From the NCBI GenBank assembly GCA_949285875.1, contig CASDZZ010000011.1, positions 2,289 through 66,288 of the forward strand: a stretch of 64,000 nt of DNA. The letters are read 5' to 3'. Positions 6,911 through 63,850 of the stretch are shown here, piece after piece. Each line of letters begins with the position of its first letter. The first letter of the stretch is position 1. The translations under genes were made by a program, and so were the position numbers. Below the pieces are notes generated by a model that was given only the letters and a program-made list of their open reading frames with translations, made no database searches and was not told the origin of the DNA. The DNA comes from an uncultured bacterium (lineage in GTDB: Bacteria; Bacillota_I; Bacilli_A; RF39; UBA660).

Positions 6911-7096
6911 ATGGTTAAATACAAAGTTAATTTAAAGTTTAAAGAAAATGGAAAATCTTTAAATGAAATAATTACTGAAGTATTAAAAATTGAACTACAA
7001 AAGAAGATAAACATTACTTGCAATATATTAAAAAGAGAGCTACCATGTAATCATACTCATTATTCCCAAATGGAATGGAGTAGTAATTATTGGTAG
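6911..7096 (+). CDS. 61-aa hypothetical protein overlapping the recombinase start (candidate directionality factor or regulator)
   Basis: GGAGGT lies 10 nt upstream of ATG 6911. The stop overlaps the recombinase start by 7 nt. Confidence 0.45.
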   Translation: MVKYKVNLKFKENGKSLNEIITEVLKIELQKKINITCNILKRELPCNHTHYSQMEWSSNYW

Positions 7097-8652
7097 GGAA
7101 TAATAGTTTTAAAGTAGGAATATATATAAGATTATCAAGAGATGATGGTAATTTAGAATCTGATAGTATTGTTAGTCAAAGAAGTTTACTTAATCAATAT
7201 GTTAAAGAAAATAATTATAATCTTATAGAAGAATATGTTGATGATGGTTTTACTGGAACAAACTTTGAAAGACCATCATTTAAAAGAATGATTAAAGACA
7301 TTGAATTTGGAAGAATTAATATGATAATTACTAAAGATATGTCTAGATTAGGTAGAGATTATATTGGTACAGGAGAGTTAATTGAAAAGTATTTTCCAAA
7401 TAAAAATGTTAGGTATATTGCTATTAATGATGGGATTGATACATTTATAGATAATACTAATAATGATATAGCACCTTTTAAAGCAATTATGAATGATATG
7501 TATGCTAAAGATATTTCTAAAAAAGTTAAAACAAGTTTGCATTCTAGAATGAAAGAAGGATTATATGTATCTGGTAGATGTCCTTTTGGATATATGAAAG
7601 ATCCTAATAATAAAAACCATTTAGTTATAAATAAAGAACAAGCAGAAATTGTTAGATTAATCTTTGATTTAGCACTTAAAGGTAAGACATATCACTATAT
7701 AGCACAATACCTTACTGCAAGAAAAATAAAAACTCCAGCATCTTATTACAATTATGTATGGAATACAAAATGTAGTACAGAGTGTATAAGTCAAGAATAT
7801 GGTGTATGGGTAGATACAACTATAAAATCAATTTTAACTAATCAGATATATGTAGGAGATACAGTTCAAGGTAAGACTAAAAAGATTAATTATAAACTTA
7901 AAAAGACAGTTAAAAATAAACCAAATGATTTCATAATAGTCGAAAATACTCACGAAGAAATTATAGATAGAGAAACATTCAATTATGTTCAAACACTTTT
8001 ACCTAAAAATGTTAAAAGGCCAGAGAAGAAAAGATTTTATTTATTAGATGGGCTTTTATACTGTGGAGATTGTAAACACAGAATAACTGTTAGATATCAA
8101 AATAAAACTGGTAGAAGTTATACAACCTGTGATTATTATAGAACATATTCAAAGTATCATGTATGTACGACTCATACAAATAATTATGATGTGTTAGAAA
8201 GAGTTATTTTAGATAATATAAAAGAAGTTTGTAAAAATTATTTAGATAAGAACCAGATAACAGATTATATTGGTAATATGGAGTTTGAAGATAATACTTT
8301 AAAGATTAAAAAGCAAATTGAAAGTTTAGAAATTACTAATAATAAATTAACAGAAAACTTAGATAAGAACTATATGAATATGTTAAAAGGTATTATTGAT
8401 GAAGAACAATATTTGAGAATAAGTGAAAATCTAAAACAAGAAATAGCAAATAATAAATCAAGTATTGATAATCTTAAAAATGAAAGTAGTGAATCTAATA
8501 AAATAGATGAAAAGCAAATAGAAAAATATATTAATGAATTTTTATCTTTAGAAAATCCAACTAGAGAATTAATAATTAATTTAGTTGAAAAAATCTACAT
8601 CTATCAAGATAAAACGATAGATATTATATTTACATTTAAAAATGTTACATAA
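7090..8652 (+). CDS. large serine recombinase (resolvase/invertase N-domain plus recombinase, zinc-ribbon and coiled-coil C-terminal region)
   Basis: VGIYIRLSRDDG...SQR catalytic N-terminus. CGDCKHRI...C cysteine cluster. Long coiled-coil-like C-terminal region. 520 aa. The TTG start is uncertain. Confidence 0.9.
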   Translation: MVGNNSFKVGIYIRLSRDDGNLESDSIVSQRSLLNQYVKENNYNLIEEYVDDGFTGTNFERPSFKRMIKDIEFGRINMIITKDMSRLGRDYIGTGELIEKYFPNKNVRYIAINDGIDTFIDNTNNDIAPFKAIMNDMYAKDISKKVKTSLHSRMKEGLYVSGRCPFGYMKDPNNKNHLVINKEQAEIVRLIFDLALKGKTYHYIAQYLTARKIKTPASYYNYVWNTKCSTECISQEYGVWVDTTIKSILTNQIYVGDTVQGKTKKINYKLKKTVKNKPNDFIIVENTHEEIIDRETFNYVQTLLPKNVKRPEKKRFYLLDGLLYCGDCKHRITVRYQNKTGRSYTTCDYYRTYSKYHVCTTHTNNYDVLERVILDNIKEVCKNYLDKNQITDYIGNMEFEDNTLKIKKQIESLEITNNKLTENLDKNYMNMLKGIIDEEQYLRISENLKQEIANNKSSIDNLKNESSESNKIDEKQIEKYINEFLSLENPTRELIINLVEKIYIYQDKTIDIIFTFKNVT

Positions 8653-8663
8653 AAAACGTATCT

Positions 8664-8672
8664 GGAGATACG
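8664..8672. repeat. attR core, 9-bp ggagatacg, embedded in the palindrome aacgtatc-tgga-gatacgtt
   Basis: Exact repeat of 4525-4533. Confidence 0.8.
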
Positions 8673-8948
8673 TTAATTAAAATAGCTAGTAAATTTAATT
8701 TAGATTACAAAGTTTTGGCAGATTATAATAATATAAAAGATCCAAATAAAATTTATGAAAATCAAATTTTAAAAATTCCTTTAAAAGCTGAAAATTTACC
8801 AAATAAATATATTGTAAAAAAAGGCGATACATTAATAAAAATAGCAAAAGTATATGGAAAAGATTGGAAAGAAATATATGATAAAAATAAAGCTGTAATT
8901 GGAAATAATCCTAATGTTATAAAACCAGGGCAGATTTTGTATATTTAA
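8673..8948 (+). pseudogene. displaced 3' segment of the GH25 lysozyme gene (rest of LysM 1 plus LysM 2)
   Basis: The frame is open from the att core with no RBS. LIKIASKFNLDYKVLADYNNIKDPNKIYENQILKIP and YIVKKGDTLIKIAKVYG...IKPGQILYI are LysM repeats. In frame with 3886-4533. Confidence 0.8.
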
Positions 8949-9055
8949 GATAAAAAAAGGTTAACATTTTAAATGTTAATCTTTTTAAATTTATATTGAT
9001 AATTTTTTTTAAAAATGGTATTCTATAAATATAGGATAGGAAAGGAGTGAAGGTG

Positions 9056-9580
9056 ATGAAAAGGCAAAATATTATTGCTATTGGCGTTATAGTTTTTGCG
9101 GTTATAATTGTTGTTGGTTATGCTCTATTTCAAGAGTCTTTAAATATTACTGGTACTGCTACAGCAGCAGGTGATTTTAATGTTGATTTTACAGAAGTAG
9201 GTTCACCAACTTGTAAAGGTTATTCTGGAACTTGCGATGCAGAATCATTAGCTACTATACAAGGTGGCGGAAATACTTTAAATGTAACGGTTAATAAGCT
9301 TGATTATCCATCTGCTTATGTTATTATTCCCGTAACTATTACAAATAAAGGTTCAATTTCGGCAGAGTTAAGTGAAATTAGAGAAACTAATTTAGCACCA
9401 GAAGATAAAGCTATAAAAGTAACTTATTCTGGTGTTGCTGCAAGTGATACTGAGATCCGTACAGGTGAAACCCAAACAATGAATATAAAAGTAGAATGGG
9501 ATCCAGAAAAAAATGAACCAGGTGAACAAGCTTCATTTAATATAGAGTTAGTTTACGAACAATATGTTGCTGGTAATTAA
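9056..9580 (+). CDS. TasA/BsaA-like SipW-dependent secreted matrix protein, paralogue 1
   Basis: Signal anchor followed by GYALFQESLNITGTATA (TasA-type G-x-x-A-x-F-x-E region). PVTITNKGSISAEL motif. Closely similar to 9645-10154. Confidence 0.7.
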   Translation: MKRQNIIAIGVIVFAVIIVVGYALFQESLNITGTATAAGDFNVDFTEVGSPTCKGYSGTCDAESLATIQGGGNTLNVTVNKLDYPSAYVIIPVTITNKGSISAELSEIRETNLAPEDKAIKVTYSGVAASDTEIRTGETQTMNIKVEWDPEKNEPGEQASFNIELVYEQYVAGN

Positions 9581-9644
9581 AAATAAGATTTTATTTTAAA
9601 AAAATAAAGATTGTGTTATAATAATTAATATAGGAGGAAAATAG

Positions 9645-10154
9645 ATGAAAAGAAATAATATAATTGCGATTGGAGTTATAGTTTTTGCTCTTGCAGTAGC
9701 TATTGGTTATGCTTTATTCCAAGAGTCTTTAAATGTTACTGGAACTGCAACAGCACAAGGAACTTTTGACGTTCAGTTTACACAGGCAAACATTCAAACA
9801 GAAGTTGGAAGTTCTGGAGCACAAGCTAACATTGAAGAAGGTGGAAAAACTTTAACTATTACTGTTCCAAAGCTTGAATATCCTGGAGCTTATGTTGAAA
9901 TTCCAGTTACTGTAACTAATAAAGGATCAATACCAGCTATTCTTACAAATATTGAAGAAACTGGATTAACAGTAGATTCAAGAGCAGTAAAAGTAACTTA
10001 TACCGGGCTTACAGAGTTAAAAAATCAAGAAGTAACACAAAATGGAACTCAAACTTTCACTATTAAAGTTGAATGGGATCCAAATGTTAATACTGGTGCG
10101 GAAGATGTTTCATTTTCAATAAGATTAGATTATAAACAAAAAACTGCTGAATAG
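9645..10154 (+). CDS. TasA/BsaA-like SipW-dependent secreted matrix protein, paralogue 2
   Basis: Same N-terminal GYALFQESLNVTGTATA and PVTVTNKGSIPAIL motifs as paralogue 1. Confidence 0.7.
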   Translation: MKRNNIIAIGVIVFALAVAIGYALFQESLNVTGTATAQGTFDVQFTQANIQTEVGSSGAQANIEEGGKTLTITVPKLEYPGAYVEIPVTVTNKGSIPAILTNIEETGLTVDSRAVKVTYTGLTELKNQEVTQNGTQTFTIKVEWDPNVNTGAEDVSFSIRLDYKQKTAE

Positions 10155-10157
10155 TTT

Positions 10158-10169
10158 GTCTTTAGAATA
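10158..10169. repeat. 12-bp direct repeat gtctttagaata flanking the IS (second copy at 11762-11773)
   Basis: Exact 12-bp identity immediately outside the IS ends. Confidence 0.6.
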
Positions 10170-11761
10170 CGTTAAATTTTAAGTAAAGTGCACAATTAAG
10201 TGCATTACGGTAAAAAATGTGCTTTTTCATAAGAAAATGCACATTTTTATACCGTTTTAAGAAGAAAATATATAAAAAAATAAATAAATATGTTATATTA
10301 TTAGTGTCAAAGAACAAATTGTTCCACGACAAAAAGACAGGAAGTGCAGGAATTTTAAAAGAAAGCGCACAATCTGTTTATCTTCAATATTATGGCAATT
10401 TATTTGTCAGATGGATATTTATAAGGGCTTGTTATAAATATCTTTTTTATTTTTTTAATAAGTTTTTATTAAGAATAACATCGTCTGGTTTAATGTAATA
10501 ACAATCTAATAATTTAAGTATACTTTTATCACACAAAAATAGCATTGCATTATAAGTACAATTTCCATTTAAAGAATCTCTGCATAGTGAATTAATGTTA
10601 TTCATAATTAAATTACAATCATTTCGATTTAAGTCTTTAAAAGAACTACCTTTAGGTAAAACATATCTAATAAATTCATGATTCTTTTCAATCATACCTT
10701 TTTGAGATGATATATGTGGATCACAAAAGAATAGGTGTGTAACATATTCTCCAGTTTTATGAATGCACTCTATGTTATTAACATCAAAAAATTCATGACC
10801 ATTATCAGTAAGAATAACTTGAAATAATTTTTTATAATCTTCATAAGGTAGAGTTTGTTGTAAATATTCAAATATTCTAGTAACTTCATCAGTTGTTTGA
10901 GATTCCAGTTTAAATATAAGCAAGAATTTAGATTTTCTCCAAAGAAGAGTAAGGAAACAATAAGGTTCATCTTGAGAGCCTTTAACAGTATCCATTTCAA
11001 CTATATTTAAGTCAGGATTGTTACTTATATATTCAACGAAATCATCATATTTTCTACCAATTAATATTTCACGTTCTTTTCTTGTTCTTCTTTTGTTGGA
11101 TTTTTTTCTTTTTTTATACTTAACAATTCTAGGAAAATCTAAAGGTCCAAAATCAAATACACCAGAATTAACATAGTTATAAAAAGAAGGTTTAGAAAAA
11201 TCTAAGATGTCAGGGTGATTGATATATAAATGATTAATAGTTTGTCCCTTTTTAATAAGAGGAGTAAGAGTAGTATTAATAACATAAACTTCCTCTGGCG
11301 TTAAATTAATACCTTTTCGAGCTTCCCTTTTTACTTCTCTATAAGTATCATCGGCTTTTCTAGCATAATAAGTATATCTTTCTTTTCTACAACCACTTCT
11401 TGATTTACAACCATTACAAACAAAAGGAGATTTATCTAATTTATCACAATGAAAATTATAGTTAGGGTTTTCAAATCTTCCATTAGTAGTCCAATTGTTG
11501 GGTTTAGAATAGGTTTTATTTCTATCTATTTCTCTTAAAATAGTTGAGTGTGATCTATTAATCTCTTTTGAAATTTGATTAATTGATTTATTATCATTTA
11601 GTCCATCTTCGATATTTTTTCTATCTTCGTAAGATAAGTGACAATACTTTGTCATAGTGAACAATACCTCCTTAATATGACAAATAAATCACCTTGGAAG
11701 TATTATATACGATTTCAAGACTTATTGCACATTAATTGTGCACTTCTTTTTTTTAAATACA
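10170..11761 (-). mobile_element. IS30-family insertion sequence (about 1.59 kb)
   Basis: Contains a single IS30-type transposase. Subterminal inverted repeats agtgcacaattaa(g)tgca at about 10187 and about 11725-11745. Flanked by a 12-bp direct repeat. Confidence 0.8.
10447..11664 (-). CDS. IS30-family transposase
   Basis: N-terminal HTH (SINQISKEINRSHSTILREIDRN). DDE region VEMDTVKG, ILTDNGHEF, SSQKGMIEKNHEFIRYVLPKG. Confidence 0.9.
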   Translation of the reverse strand: MFTMTKYCHLSYEDRKNIEDGLNDNKSINQISKEINRSHSTILREIDRNKTYSKPNNWTTNGRFENPNYNFHCDKLDKSPFVCNGCKSRSGCRKERYTYYARKADDTYREVKREARKGINLTPEEVYVINTTLTPLIKKGQTINHLYINHPDILDFSKPSFYNYVNSGVFDFGPLDFPRIVKYKKRKKSNKRRTRKEREILIGRKYDDFVEYISNNPDLNIVEMDTVKGSQDEPYCFLTLLWRKSKFLLIFKLESQTTDEVTRIFEYLQQTLPYEDYKKLFQVILTDNGHEFFDVNNIECIHKTGEYVTHLFFCDPHISSQKGMIEKNHEFIRYVLPKGSSFKDLNRNDCNLIMNNINSLCRDSLNGNCTYNAMLFLCDKSILKLLDCYYIKPDDVILNKNLLKK

Positions 11762-11767
11762 GTCTTT

Positions 11768-11796
11768 AGAATATGCTGTTTGCATATTCTTTTTTA
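11768..11796 (+). terminator. original terminator of the matrix-protein genes, now downstream of the IS
   Basis: agaatatgc-tgtt-(t)gcatattct followed by a T-run. The left copy of the direct repeat carries only the first part of the stem. Confidence 0.65.
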
Positions 11797-11874
11797 TTGA
11801 TTTTAGCAGGCATATATGCTAAAATTAATTTATGATAGCAGGGAGTTTTGTTAAGGAAATAGGGGTGAATAATT

Positions 11875-13065
11875 TTGAGAAAAAGTTATGTTGTTTTAAT
11901 TTTGTCTATTTTAATAATATCAACTAGCATTTTTGAACTTACTGGTTATTCTGTAAATTTCGGCTCTGTTTATCCTTATTTAATTAAACCTTTAACTTGG
12001 ATTATCTTAGGAATTATTATCTTTATATTTTTTAGAAATACGGTTTTAATTAGCAGAAAGTATAAAAAGGAAGTTGATTTTAACGTTATAATTTCTACCC
12101 TTATATATTTCATGATTTATTTTATTCTAGGTTATATAAAAGGTTTTGCTCATAATCCTTATGATAGAAGTTTATCTGGTATAATTATTAATCTATGGAC
12201 TTTTTTACCTGTTTTGTTTGTAAAAGAATATGCTAGATATTTCATGATTAATAATTGCAATAAAAAGAGAATCTTTTTTTGGGCTCTTTATATATCCCTT
12301 CTTTTTACTTTTATCGAATTAAATGTTTTTAAATTTGATACTTATTTTGAGTCTAGTCTTTCAACGGTTGAGTTTTTTATGCAGACCTTTATACCAAAAC
12401 TTATAGTTAATTTATATTTAACATATGTTTCTTATTTTGCGGGAATAGGTTCTCCTATAATTTATGCATTGGTTCCGCAATTAGCACTTTATATACTTCC
12501 TATTTTACCTGACTTAGATTGGGCAACTGTATCTATTTTAGATGCAACAATACCTTTTTTCTCTTATATATATATTAATTATAAAATTAATCTAATTGAC
12601 CGTATGAATCGCGCAAATTATGAAAAGACTATTGGTATAAAAGGTATGTTAGCTATGGTGCTTATGGTTGTTATAATGATGTGCTTCGGACTTGGAATTT
12701 TCCCTGTAAAACCTTTAGTTATTGCTAGTAATAGTATGGCCCCAAAGATTCATAGAGGAGATATAGTTTTAATTGTAGATAAGGATGTTAATAAAGTAAA
12801 GGAAAATGATATTATACGTTATCAAATGGATGGTTATTATGTTGTTCATAGAGTACAAAGGGTTATAAAGGGTAAAGATGGTAAAGTTCAGTTTATAACA
12901 AAGGGTGATAATAATAATGATGTTGATATTTTTCCTGTTAAGGAAAATCAGTTTGCTGGCGTAGTAAAATTAAATATTCCGTTAATTGGATATCCTACGC
13001 TAATTTTAAATGAATTATTAAATTCAAATGCTGGTGATAATGTAAAGGTTGAAAAAGGAAATTAA
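11875..13065 (+). CDS. SipW/ER-type signal peptidase I fused to a ~270-aa polytopic N-terminal membrane domain
   Basis: C-terminal ASNSMAPKIHRGDIV (catalytic Ser box), VVHRV (His box) and TKGDNN. Preceded by about 8 predicted TM helices of unknown family. Confidence 0.75.
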   Translation: MRKSYVVLILSILIISTSIFELTGYSVNFGSVYPYLIKPLTWIILGIIIFIFFRNTVLISRKYKKEVDFNVIISTLIYFMIYFILGYIKGFAHNPYDRSLSGIIINLWTFLPVLFVKEYARYFMINNCNKKRIFFWALYISLLFTFIELNVFKFDTYFESSLSTVEFFMQTFIPKLIVNLYLTYVSYFAGIGSPIIYALVPQLALYILPILPDLDWATVSILDATIPFFSYIYINYKINLIDRMNRANYEKTIGIKGMLAMVLMVVIMMCFGLGIFPVKPLVIASNSMAPKIHRGDIVLIVDKDVNKVKENDIIRYQMDGYYVVHRVQRVIKGKDGKVQFITKGDNNNDVDIFPVKENQFAGVVKLNIPLIGYPTLILNELLNSNAGDNVKVEKGN

Positions 13066-13136
13066 TGTAAAATAGATAATAAATTTATTGTTATTATTAA
13101 AGGAAAATGCTATAATAAATATGATAGGGGTGCGAT

Positions 13137-13634
13137 ATGAAAAAACAAAATAAGAAAAAAGTATTATTTGTACTTTTCATGTTAATACTTGCTGTTGGTT
13201 ATTATTTATTCAAAATAAGTTCAGATGTTAGTGGGGTTGCTGAAGTAGGTCAAATAGATGTTATTTTTACAAAAATTGGTAAGATAACAGAAGTTGATAG
13301 TTCTGGAGCAACCGCGGAAATATTAAATGATGGCAAAAGAATAGTTATAAACGCACCTAATTTAAAAAGTGGAAGCGCAGTTGTTAAAATTCCTGTCACT
13401 TTGAAAAATAATGGTTATTTTCCTGTTAAATTAGATTCAATCTTAGAGTATGGAAACCCAAGTGATTCTTCGGTAGAGGTAGAATATACCGGCATTGGTG
13501 TTTCTGATAAAGAATTAGCTTCCGGAGAAACTAAAGAATTTTTTATTAATATTTATTCTAAAAATGTTAATATGATGCAAACTGTAAACTTTGGCTTTGA
13601 ATTTAAATATGTGCAAAGTTATTTAGAAAGTTAG
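13137..13634 (+). CDS. TasA/BsaA-like secreted protein, divergent paralogue 3
   Basis: Signal anchor, VGYYLFKISSDVSGVA and PVTLKNNGYFPVKL motifs. Same length class as paralogues 1 and 2. Confidence 0.6.
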   Translation: MKKQNKKKVLFVLFMLILAVGYYLFKISSDVSGVAEVGQIDVIFTKIGKITEVDSSGATAEILNDGKRIVINAPNLKSGSAVVKIPVTLKNNGYFPVKLDSILEYGNPSDSSVEVEYTGIGVSDKELASGETKEFFINIYSKNVNMMQTVNFGFEFKYVQSYLES

Positions 13635-13648
13635 GATGGTGTTATGAG

Positions 13649-14803
13649 ATGCAAGATTTTAACATAAACAATATTAAAGATAAATTTTTAGAAATTATAG
13701 ACAAAATTAAAGGTTTTATTTTTGCAAATGATAAGACTAAAAAAATATTCTTTTCTTGTTTGTTGGCGTTTTTGATAGTACTTCAAATCACTTTTTTTGG
13801 TTTTTTAGTAAGAGCAGTATCTCCTAGTGAAAAACAAAAAGATGAAAATGTTGTAATGAAATATAGTTTAAGTGGAAATATGGATTATAAAGTTTATTTA
13901 AAACCTAATGATTTTATTAAACAAGATTATTTAGGACCAGACGAAGCTTATGTTCTTGATCTTATCGACTATGTTCAAATTTCTTCTTTGTCTAATTTTT
14001 CTTCTAATGCGAAGACAAAGGTTAATGGAAATAATAAACTTGTAGCTACATTAAAAGTTTATTATAAGGAGACAAGTGATACAAATAGTAACCCTGAAAT
14101 TTTAAATAAAGAAAAGATTTTGTCTGAGAAAACTCTTAGCTTTGATGATAGTAGATATAGTGTTTTAAACTCATATAATTTATATCTTTCTGAATATTTA
14201 GATATGTTAAAAGAGTTCCAAAATCAAATTAAGATAGCAATGGATGGTTATTTAGAAATTTCTTCTACTTCTAATTTTGAAGGAAAAGTAGGAGGCATAC
14301 CTTACAAAGATAATTACACTACAGTTCTAAAAATACCTTTAAGTAGTTCTGTTATAAGAATAGAAAATGAAAAAACTGATGAAAAGGTTTCTAGAATTTA
14401 TGAAGGTGACTTAGCTAAAAATAATAAGTTAGTTATGTCTTATATAGTAATAGCTAATTTAGTAATATTTGGTATTATTTGTTATTTAATAAAGAAAATT
14501 TTTGTTTTCAAAAAGAAAACTGAATACGAAAAAGAAATAAATAAACTTTTAAGAAATTATGATGATATTATTGTAAATACTTCAACATCAATTGATATTG
14601 AAAAATATAAAATAATAGAAATTGAAGAGTTTAAAGAAATTTTAAATTTATCAAGGGAATTATTGCTTCCAATTATGAATTATGAAATTTTAAAAGGAAA
14701 AGAAACTTGGTTCTATGTTATAAAGGATGAAATTTTATATAGGTATATTATATCTGAAAGTTTATTGAATGAAAGAAAATATGAAAAACACAAGAAATTT
14801 TAA
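13649..14803 (+). CDS. two-TM membrane protein of the SipW/TasA-like cluster (possibly DUF5305-like)
   Basis: 384-aa ORF with TM helices near aa 35-55 and aa 262-282. Tightly packed after the preceding gene. Confidence 0.55.
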   Translation: MQDFNINNIKDKFLEIIDKIKGFIFANDKTKKIFFSCLLAFLIVLQITFFGFLVRAVSPSEKQKDENVVMKYSLSGNMDYKVYLKPNDFIKQDYLGPDEAYVLDLIDYVQISSLSNFSSNAKTKVNGNNKLVATLKVYYKETSDTNSNPEILNKEKILSEKTLSFDDSRYSVLNSYNLYLSEYLDMLKEFQNQIKIAMDGYLEISSTSNFEGKVGGIPYKDNYTTVLKIPLSSSVIRIENEKTDEKVSRIYEGDLAKNNKLVMSYIVIANLVIFGIICYLIKKIFVFKKKTEYEKEINKLLRNYDDIIVNTSTSIDIEKYKIIEIEEFKEILNLSRELLLPIMNYEILKGKETWFYVIKDEILYRYIISESLLNERKYEKHKKF

Positions 14804-15494
14804 AAAAATTATAACTAATTTAGTTTTATTTTCCTTTGTTTTTCCTTTAGGAATAATTATATATAAGATATTTACTTCTCCAACGGTAAATAGTTCTAAT
14901 ATAGAAAATATTAAGGTAAAAAGTGACTACGTATTAATGCTTCTACAATGTTTGTTAGGTATTATAGCTTTATTTATTCCAAAATTTTTATCTAAAAATA
15001 AAAAGATAACAATACCATCTTTAATGTATATATTCTATGTAGTATTTTTGTACGGAGCTATTTTCTTAGGTGAAGTACGAAATTTCTATTACAAAGTTCC
15101 TCATTGGGATACTATACTTCATACTTTTAGTGGTTTTGCTATTGGTGCTTTAGGTTTTTCAGTTGTTAGTTTACTTACAAAAGAAAAAAAACTAGGGATA
15201 AGCTTATCACCGTTCTTTATTTCTCTTTTTGCTCTTTGTTTTGCAGTAACAATGGGCGTTTTATGGGAAATTTATGAATTTAGTTTTGATGGAGTGCTAG
15301 GACTTAATATGCAGAAATTTGCATTAGAAAATGGATCAAATTTGATAGGAAGAAAAGCTTTGGTTGATACTATGAAAGATTTAATAGTTGATTTCTTAGG
15401 AGCCTTTGTTATGTGTTTTATCGGTTTTATCTCAATGAAATATAAAAAAGGCTGGCTTGAAGGTTTATTAATAACGAAAGAAGAAAAAAAATAA
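14769..15494 (+). CDS. polytopic membrane protein, function unknown
   Basis: About 6 TM helices with HWDTILHTFSG and WEIYEF motifs. Overlaps the upstream gene by 35 nt; an ATG at 14781 is an alternative start. Confidence 0.55.
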   Translation: MKENMKNTRNFKKIITNLVLFSFVFPLGIIIYKIFTSPTVNSSNIENIKVKSDYVLMLLQCLLGIIALFIPKFLSKNKKITIPSLMYIFYVVFLYGAIFLGEVRNFYYKVPHWDTILHTFSGFAIGALGFSVVSLLTKEKKLGISLSPFFISLFALCFAVTMGVLWEIYEFSFDGVLGLNMQKFALENGSNLIGRKALVDTMKDLIVDFLGAFVMCFIGFISMKYKKGWLEGLLITKEEKK

Positions 15495-15517
15495 CGATGA
15501 TTTAAATCATCGTTTTT
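15493..15517. terminator. bidirectional terminator
   Basis: aacgatgattt/aaatcatcgtt palindrome flanked by A-runs and T-runs, between convergent genes. Confidence 0.65.
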
Positions 15518-63763: not shown

Positions 63764-63850
63764 AGAATCGAAAGATTCTTTATTTTTTTGTAAAATATTC
63801 CTAATAAATGATATAATAAATATATATTATAGAATTTGCGAGGTGTTAAA

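Follow-up and report, generated by a model that had tools for sequence, protein, structure and literature searches.

Which kind of system is encoded where three small paralogous proteins stand beside a signal peptidase that carries a large membrane domain, and what might that domain do? The question arises at positions 9047–15494 of a 64,000-nucleotide stretch of DNA (hereafter the window; C11:2289–66288 of a 46-contig, 1.10-Mb assembly that is 90.65% complete) from an uncultured gut bacterium, with a G+C content of 22–33% across the window. A first-pass annotation, made from the letters alone, had described a TasA/BsaA-like matrix locus with a SipW-type signal peptidase fused to a polytopic domain, and its six open reading frames (ORFs) are all found where it placed them, all on the plus strand. 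We regard the locus as a likely fibre operon of the abpX type, with subunits from the AbpX clade of the TasA superfamily, a reading drawn from sequence and held with good but not full confidence for the whole system, including cleavage after Gly-Tyr-Ala (GYA) and donor-strand polymerisation. The operon itself is real and conserved, and its host is an uncultured gut bacterium with a small genome.

The AbpX clade of the TasA superfamily is distributed over Thermoproteota, Bacillota and Chloroflexota, and its fibrils have been solved for Pyrodictium abyssi, where subunits assemble through donor-strand complementation and the interface holds three Ca2+ ions; members of the family have an isoelectric point (pI) of ~4, ~15% acidic residues, and a mature N-terminus whose position +2 is aromatic and +4 acidic, while the AbpX-linked signal peptidase I has ten transmembrane (TM) helices and DUF5305 as an accessory (bioRxiv 10.64898/2026.01.04.697558).

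The three small proteins of the window are referred to as A1 (9047–9580), A2 (9645–10154) and A3 (13137–13634) in gene order, all encoded on the plus strand. A1 comprises 177 residues when read from the GTG codon at 9047, although the position of the ribosome-binding site in the sequence makes the ATG at 9056 the likelier start; A2 has 169 residues, and A3, a divergent paralogue, has 165. Each is predicted to contain one N-terminal hydrophobic segment. An AbpX-like profile matches A1 at E 6.5e-48 in its own genome and A3 at E 5.9e-31. Compared with the PDB using phmmer, A2 alone retrieves AbpX (9sj2/9rhp; 9sj2_C at E 3.7e-4), and a profile of 93 small homologues out of related loci retrieves AbpX (9sj2) at E 2.3e-7 over AbpX residues 9–139, in an alignment that superposes the conserved (Y)PG...TVxNxG(T/S)IxAxL core, including the NxG(T/S)(I/L)xA box. 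TasA chains 8aur and 5of1, in contrast, reach only E 0.7–0.9 with the same profile, and because of this difference A1–A3 are assigned to the AbpX clade and not to TasA/BsaA proper; the membership in the TasA superfamily implied by the first-pass annotation is retained, but its TasA/BsaA type is not. No match to the Pfam family Peptidase_M73 (PF12389) was obtained for any of the three at E values as high as 10, and seven of the 93 homologues match it weakly (best E 1.1e-4).

With cleavage as predicted, the mature proteins have pI values of 4.17 (A1), 4.51 (A2) and 4.74 (A3) and Asp plus Glu contents of 14.6%, 12.3% and 12.7%, respectively, in agreement with the low pI (~4) and high acidic content (~15%) of the AbpX family. 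The predicted cut, which puts the Gly of GYA at −3 and its Ala at −1, leaves A1 and A2 beginning with L-F-Q-E, as GYA↓LFQESLNITGTA in A1, whose mature form has two Cys residues, and as GYA↓LFQESLNVTGTA in A2, placing Phe at +2 and Glu at +4. A common processing motif and a PVT(I/V)TNKGS box had been attributed to all three proteins. Both are shared by A1 and A2, the former as GYA↓LFQESLN(I/V)TGTA, but A3 reads GYY↓LFKISSDVSGVA and has PVTLKNNGY in place of the box; its predicted mature form (GYY↓LFKISSDVSG) begins with LFKI and has no acidic residue at +4. In the set of 93 homologues the processing motif takes the form (A/S)(V/I)-G-Y-(A/S)↓(A/L)-(F/L)-x-x-x-L-(T/N)-I-(N/S)-G-T-A, with Phe at +2 in 61 and Leu in 29. 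The place of A3 after the peptidase gene is retained in close relatives (synteny, L001–L016), and A3 is a candidate minor subunit.

The peptidase (11875–13065, plus strand) is a single protein of 396 residues, as had been proposed. Eight helices are located within residues 1–251, consistent with the earlier estimate of about eight in the first ~270 residues, but that stretch holds one more, an anchor helix at residues 255–273. The gene thus divides into a part encoding an eight-helix membrane domain (residues 1–252, 11875–12630; hereafter the N-domain) and a part encoding the anchor helix and a signal peptidase I domain of the archaeal/ER type (12631–13065), assigned by TIGR02228 and by similarity to SEC11A/C. 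When the N-domain (255 residues) was compared with 1.84 billion protein representatives at E ≤ 0.001, it returned 726 clusters, and since nearly all listed matches are proteins of 370–410 residues aligned at their N-terminus, the fused architecture is the rule. For the full protein, more than 250 homologues were obtained, the best 120 of them 55–65% identical and 385–428 residues long.

An artefactual origin of the fusion was considered and is ruled out by the more than 250 full-length homologues together with the 726 N-domain clusters. The specific scenario of a frameshift or mis-called gene, which the first-pass annotation had itself raised, is likewise excluded, as the N-domain matches are almost all 380–400 residues long. 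The fusion, whose membrane part the first-pass annotation could not place in any family, is neither unassigned nor novel: the AbpX preprint of January 2026 already reports AbpX-associated signal peptidases with ten TM helices.

The catalytic domain contains the expected boxes SNSMAP (285–291), HRV (325–327) and KGDNN (343–347). Conservation was assessed in alignments of 71 members (locus translations) and 115 diverse members, and in these 71–115 homologues Ser287, His325, Asp345 and Asp351 show little or no variation, giving a catalytic set of the Ser/His/Asp and not the Ser/Lys type. The model for archaeal-type signal peptidase I, TIGR02228, matches residues 258–380 with 87 bits (cut-off 51.85), and the best solved relative is SEC11A/C, whether sequences (E 1e-11) or folds (E 4e-6) are compared. 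AlphaFold2, given the 71-sequence alignment of locus translations alone, produced a model of the full protein with a predicted local distance difference test score (pLDDT) of 88.3 and a predicted template modelling score (pTM) of 0.82; in a Foldseek comparison with the PDB this model finds SEC11A/C first, followed by S. pyogenes SipA, LexA and SpsB. Lys/Arg clusters are found at residues 1–3, 57–65, 127–133 and 238–257, and because of these Lys/Arg-rich loops the positive-inside rule would predict a cytoplasmic N-terminus and an extracellular catalytic domain.

Conservation of the gene neighbourhood was examined in 85 loci, including four contigs with close homologues and 80 loci from a scan of GTDB species genomes with a 5-sequence alignment as query; genes were counted with iterated hidden Markov models built from the window proteins and run over all ORFs. 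The four contigs have a common order: a GH25-LysM lysozyme gene, two small genes, the peptidase, a small gene, DUF5305, DUF2238, pnuC on the opposite strand, and gltX. AbpX-like genes occur in 81 of the 85 loci (205 copies overall), and DUF5305 in 77, nearly always immediately 3' of the peptidase gene. From these occurrences, the conserved core consists of one or more AbpX-like genes, the polytopic peptidase and DUF5305, and it is often followed on its 3' side by a larger AbpX-domain protein of 270–850 residues. The survey of the phylogenetic spread of the fusion that the first-pass annotation had called for extends from gut Bacilli and Clostridia to Chloroflexota: the 80 scanned loci include gut metagenome-assembled genomes labelled Bacilli, Mycoplasmatota/Tenericutes, Candidatus Aphodocola (64% identity) and Clostridium sp. 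CAG:594, and further loci come from Christensenellaceae, other Clostridia, Acidaminobacter, Syntrophomonadaceae and Chloroflexota.

The DUF5305 protein of the window (13649–14803, plus strand; PF17231 at E 1.6e-13) has 384 residues and two predicted TM segments (36–54 and 263–281), and is a putative accessory subunit of the peptidase. Its recurrence behind the peptidase gene upholds the view that this two-TM protein belongs to the machine. The six-TM protein at the end of the locus (14769–15494, plus strand) is present as had been described, with six TM helices predicted in 241 residues, but it is a lineage-specific add-on: a DUF2238-like gene is found in 10 of the 85 loci, in close relatives exclusively. 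The first 35 nucleotides of its ORF lie within the end of the DUF5305 gene; the match to PF09997 is weak (E 0.043), and orthologues have a PF09997 match on record.

The agreement with the abpX loci (Pyrodictium abyssi, PDB 9SJ2/9RHP) covers several levels: small acidic subunits with a significant AbpX match, predicted mature N-termini of A1 and A2 in which +2 is aromatic and +4 acidic, a dedicated signal peptidase I with many TM helices that stands, like a DUF5305 accessory gene, beside the subunit genes, and additional AbpX-like minor and large 'tip' subunits. The window differs in that its host is an uncultured gut Bacilli lineage with a 1.1-Mb genome; in that the cluster has a DUF2238-like membrane protein and no SLH or LPXTG anchor gene; in that many members of this branch have no acidic residue at +4; and in that the genome has two cassettes and ~18 AbpX-domain ORFs, including fusions of the AbpX domain to BspA-type leucine-rich repeats (LRR). 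The tafi fimbriae of Haloarcula hispanica (TafA, TafD, TafG; PMC11821415, PMC12337348) likewise combine a donor-strand fibre, a dedicated signal peptidase and a DUF5305 protein. Their subunits, however, use the twin-arginine (Tat) pathway with twin-arginine signals, and TafD, with four TM helices, bears an additional domain at its C-terminus instead of an eight-helix domain at its N-terminus. In the haloarchaeal system, deletion of the dedicated peptidase TafD blocks both TafA processing and fimbriae, and TafG is the DUF5305 protein (PMC11821415); by analogy, this is the nearest genetic evidence for the mechanism proposed here.

Gene content, homology, the fusion, conserved synteny and the predicted fold are what the analysis shows; the cleavage site, polymerisation and what the N-domain, DUF5305 and DUF2238 do are inferred. 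In the mechanism that we propose, the small acidic proteins A1–A3 would be exported via Sec with a long signal anchor, and the extracellular Ser/His/Asp domain of the dedicated 396-residue peptidase would cut after the conserved G-Y-A/S. The freed N-terminus (x-Phe-x-Glu-x-Leu-x-Ile...) would then serve as donor strand and enter the open jelly-roll of the next subunit, such that polymerisation would proceed outside the cell and without a chaperone. The near-identical A1 and A2 would be the main subunits and the divergent A3 a minor one. DUF5305, with two TM helices, an outside domain and a cytoplasmic domain, would assist the peptidase as accessory subunit, and several large BspA-type LRR proteins of this genome with the same signal and donor strand would plug into or onto the fibres as adhesins. 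In the least certain step, the N-domain would be an integral module for substrate docking or scaffolding, keeping the signal anchor of AbpX-type precursors at the active site.

Several observations weigh against this account. Glu occupies +4 in 19 of the 93 homologues, and with an acidic residue at this position in ~20% of them, calcium-triggered assembly as in P. abyssi may not be generally applicable. No match to the NCBIfam signal-peptide model of the SipW-cognate class, which we take to be TIGR04088, is listed for A1–A3 at E up to 10, where the HMMER filters may drop short weak matches. The open-groove jelly-roll of A1–A3 is itself a fold deduced from sequence, and neither an LPXTG nor an SLH anchor was found on the AbpX-like proteins of this genome. 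SLH was not found anywhere in the genome, which carries two sortases and one LPXTG protein unrelated to the AbpX-like set.

What, then, is the N-domain? Modelled alone (residues 1–252), it gives pLDDT 93.4 and pTM 0.89, with eight long helices and two short conserved strands (91–93 and 210–212) ahead of the anchor helix. Gly86, Asn106, Glu118, Arg121, Pro209 and Pro212 reach a conservation of at least 90% among the 115 diverse members, whereas this alignment contains no conserved Cys, His or Ser in the N-domain. No Pfam or NCBIfam family was found for the N-domain in the 71 members, and its profile gives zero matches among PDB sequences. Exosortase/archaeosortase, rhomboid and O-antigen-ligase folds had been suggested as candidates, and none of them appears among the Foldseek PDB or Pfam matches. 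The sole membrane-protein match of the full model against the PDB is Rce1 (4cad_F; E 0.028, probability 0.97). The N-domain alone finds the same chain at E 0.09 and probability 0.96, with TM-scores of 0.41/0.41 and a root-mean-square deviation of 8.9 Å over 259 columns, and all its other matches have a probability of at most 0.2; among the better TM-scores is that of APH-1 (8oqy_C; 0.35/0.38), a non-catalytic subunit of gamma-secretase that is related to Rce1/CPBP.

A comparison of the N-domain with 20 PF02517 (CPBP) proteins from related genomes using hhalign gives a probability of 11–17% and a score of 28.0, above the controls (at most 22.2 for 20 block-shuffles, 20.5 for the reversed alignment, and also below 28.0 for three decoy families). 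In this alignment Glu118-x-x-Arg121 falls on EExxxR, Phe144...Glu148 on FxxxH and Tyr197 on the HxxxN His. The N-domain thus resembles Rce1/CPBP (ABI, PF02517) in its eight-helix bundle and in a fourth-helix Glu and Arg that align with EExxxR, but it differs in lacking the FxxxH and HxxxN histidines, in a Glu-Arg spacing that is one residue shorter, in a TM-score of 0.41 and in the missing Pfam match. Of the three CPBP motifs, just E118-x-x-R121 is kept. In our reading, the N-domain is probably a distant CPBP/Rce1-like fold with the Glu and Arg of motif 1 and without both catalytic histidines. Caution is called for by the weakness of the likeness (TM-score 0.41, E 0.03–0.09, hhalign probability 11–17%), by the absence of any PF02517 match in the 71 members, and by the replaced histidines, residue 148 being Asp, Glu, Asn or Ser and the HxxxN His position being Tyr197.

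We tentatively put forward a wider proposal, which we think somewhat doubtful as a whole: that the N-domain represents a previously unrecognised histidine-less Rce1/CPBP/APH-1 branch wired to a signal peptidase, serving as an intramembrane receptor for AbpX-type signal anchors or as an anchor-clearing protease, and that the AbpX domain is also a general plug-in display module for variable BspA-LRR adhesins in this gut genus of minimal genomes. No literature linking SipW and CPBP was found in the library consulted.

A rival reading of the N-domain is that it is a second, active protease of the Rce1-like, glutamate-dependent intramembrane kind with an altered catalytic set, which would clear cleaved signal anchors or trim substrates and would make the whole protein a processing enzyme of two proteases. 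The conservation of Glu118 and Arg121 (98–99%), Asn106 (99%) and Tyr197 and Tyr184 (~80%) in the 115 diverse sequences is compatible with such a role, as are the hhalign placement of Glu118/Arg121 on the catalytic EExxxR of CPBP proteases, the position of Rce1 as top fold match, and the location of Glu118 in the cytoplasmic leaflet by the positive-inside rule, as expected for a cytoplasm-open cavity. The histidines and Asn of FxxxH and HxxxN are essential in Rce1, however, and here they are replaced by Asp/Glu/Asn/Ser and Tyr; furthermore, the Glu-Arg spacing is off by one residue from EExxxR and a Pfam CPBP match is missing. We therefore consider an active protease unlikely, and prefer the docking or scaffold role of the N-domain in an abpX-type operon. 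Glu118, Arg121 and Asn106 are concrete residues for mutation.

The conserved combination of signal peptidase, Rce1-like domain and DUF5305 may be what prokaryotes have in place of a signal peptidase complex of several subunits. This putative counterpart shares with the eukaryotic complex (SEC11A/C, SPC12, SPC22/23 and SPC25; PDB 7P2P/7P2Q) the SEC11-like catalytic domain and the membrane-spanning partners, but the partners are non-homologous to SPC subunits as far as tested, and the enzyme is dedicated to one substrate family.

Very improbable is the classical matrix operon of the B. subtilis (TasA-SipW-TapA) or C. perfringens (BsaA-SipW) type with a merely enlarged SipW. Those systems have in common with the window a secreted jelly-roll subunit with donor-strand exchange (here inferred) and a dedicated signal peptidase of the ER/archaeal type in the same operon. 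They belong to the same superfamily, the TasA chains 8aur and 5of1 do occur in the profile search, Peptidase_M73 is weakly represented among the homologues, and the Bacillus SipW equivalog model NF046067 matches the peptidase with 64 bits. The x-Phe-x-acid start of the mature subunits presumably also resembles the N-terminus of TasA. On the other hand, the TasA matches are non-significant (structures at E ~0.8, against E 2e-7 for AbpX), the subunits of the window have no Peptidase_M73 match, the SipW score is far under the 190-bit cut-off of its model, and there is no TapA-like gene. SipW of the classical systems has ~190 residues and no eight-helix domain, with no DUF5305 beside it, whereas DUF5305 and a polytopic peptidase typify abpX and tafi loci and not tasA operons.

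The fused enzymes are dedicated ones. Signal peptidase I matches in the assembly are solely the two fused genes, in the window and, as a 380-residue paralogue, on contig C6, but all 12 sampled genomes of the genus have a LepB-type enzyme of 175–196 residues (E 1e-44 to 1e-47) in addition to one to three fused ones, for which reason the LepB-type gene is most simply missing here through an assembly gap. That the fused enzyme is instead the general signal peptidase of a reduced genome and the small neighbours are just abundant substrates, as those two matches in a 1.10-Mb assembly might suggest, is hardly credible given the 90.65% completeness, the LepB-type peptidases of the congeners and the tie of the fused gene to AbpX-like genes in 81 of 85 loci.

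The abpX-type operon of the window is one part of a larger set, as the AbpX-like profile matches 18 ORFs in the genome. A second, complete cassette (C6:3–4672, minus strand) encodes a 193-residue AbpX-like protein, the 380-residue fused peptidase, a 398-residue DUF5305 protein and an AbpX-domain protein of more than 540 residues with DUF285/LRR. Its predicted donor strands (AFA↓ALST... and GYA↓ALNEE...) are unlike those of the window cassette, and this difference suggests, at the sequence level, that the two cassettes may be orthogonal peptidase-substrate sets.

Four further proteins of 446–662 residues (C6:15812–17329, C9:19592–21580, C36:5651–6991 and C3:59886–61346) have a near-identical signal and AbpX domain (GYA↓IFSESLNISG), a TTTTP linker and variable arrays of BspA-type LRR_5 repeats; behind the AbpX-like N-terminal domain, LRR_5 is matched at E 3e-83 and DUF285 at E 5e-58. 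Four more AbpX-like copies are cut at ~121 residues (among them C33:1–369, C36:7009–7374 and C3:3611–3976), and because three of the four stop at contig ends, the AbpX::LRR paralogues probably break the assembly. Towards the end of the window, an AbpX-like gene of 192 residues (signal VGFA↓IFSENL) runs from position 63836 to C11:66702, and after it, just past the window, C11:66717–67085 holds an AbpX::LRR paralogue truncated by the contig end. Among congeners, 11 of 12 have 5–23 AbpX-like matches per ~1-Mb genome, and no such matches were found in eight genomes from other families of the class.

Fibres of the TasA/AbpX type, formed by donor strands, are an emerging chaperone-free matrix and adhesion system common to bacteria and archaea, and the present locus places this system in uncultured gut Bacilli of ~1 Mb, where it is expanded and coupled to LRR adhesin domains. 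With 5–23 AbpX-domain matches per genome and this coupling, the AbpX system may be the main route of surface display, and of attachment to host or particles, in these bacteria. The type of system, the polytopic peptidase and the link to DUF5305 are already contained in the 2026 preprint (bioRxiv 10.64898/2026.01.04.697558); what the present case adds is an expansion at genus level, AbpX::BspA-LRR fusions, a pair of cassettes whose donor strands differ, the additional DUF2238 gene and an insertion sequence in the A2 terminator.

This insertion sequence, a 1592-bp element of the IS30 family (10170–11761, minus strand; NF033563 transpos_IS30 at E 6e-34), encodes a transposase of 405 residues (10447–11664, minus strand) and has 14-bp terminal inverted repeats at 10186–10199 and 11732–11745. 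It is flanked by a 12-bp direct repeat, GTCTTTAGAATA, at 10158–10169 and 11762–11773, whose copies are 100% identical and which is the target duplication of the element. Another copy of the element, on contig C23, is 78% identical. A terminator-like hairpin with a 9-bp stem and a T-run (11768–11790, plus strand) would directly follow the A2 gene if the element were absent, and the target duplication overlaps its 5' arm. The element is no part of the fibre system; it interrupts the intergenic region between the A2 and peptidase genes, and no coding sequence is broken. At one related locus, L004, an HTH_38 (IS30-like) gene is inserted between the peptidase and the third subunit.

Two variants of the peptidase gene were observed elsewhere. 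In a 655-residue protein from the representative search (P0225), an AbpX-like N-terminal region is apparently fused ahead of the polytopic peptidase. Locus L083 (Dehalococcoidia) has a peptidase ORF of 678 residues and no separate DUF5305 gene after it, and this ORF is possibly a peptidase-DUF5305 fusion like the one mentioned for Anaerolinea (bioRxiv 10.64898/2026.01.04.697558).

At the 3' end, the DUF2238-like gene and the convergent pnuC gene are separated by a hairpin at 15493–15514 that has a perfect 9-bp stem and T-runs on either strand; it is likely a bidirectional terminator that closes the operon and is common to both. At the 5' end, the region 7090–8950 contains a large serine recombinase gene (520 residues, ending at 8652), followed at ~8660–8950 by a LysM-coding remnant without a start of its own. 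Relatives have an intact GH25-LysM lysozyme gene at the corresponding position upstream of the fibre genes, and for this reason the recombinase element appears to split the lysozyme gene in the window.

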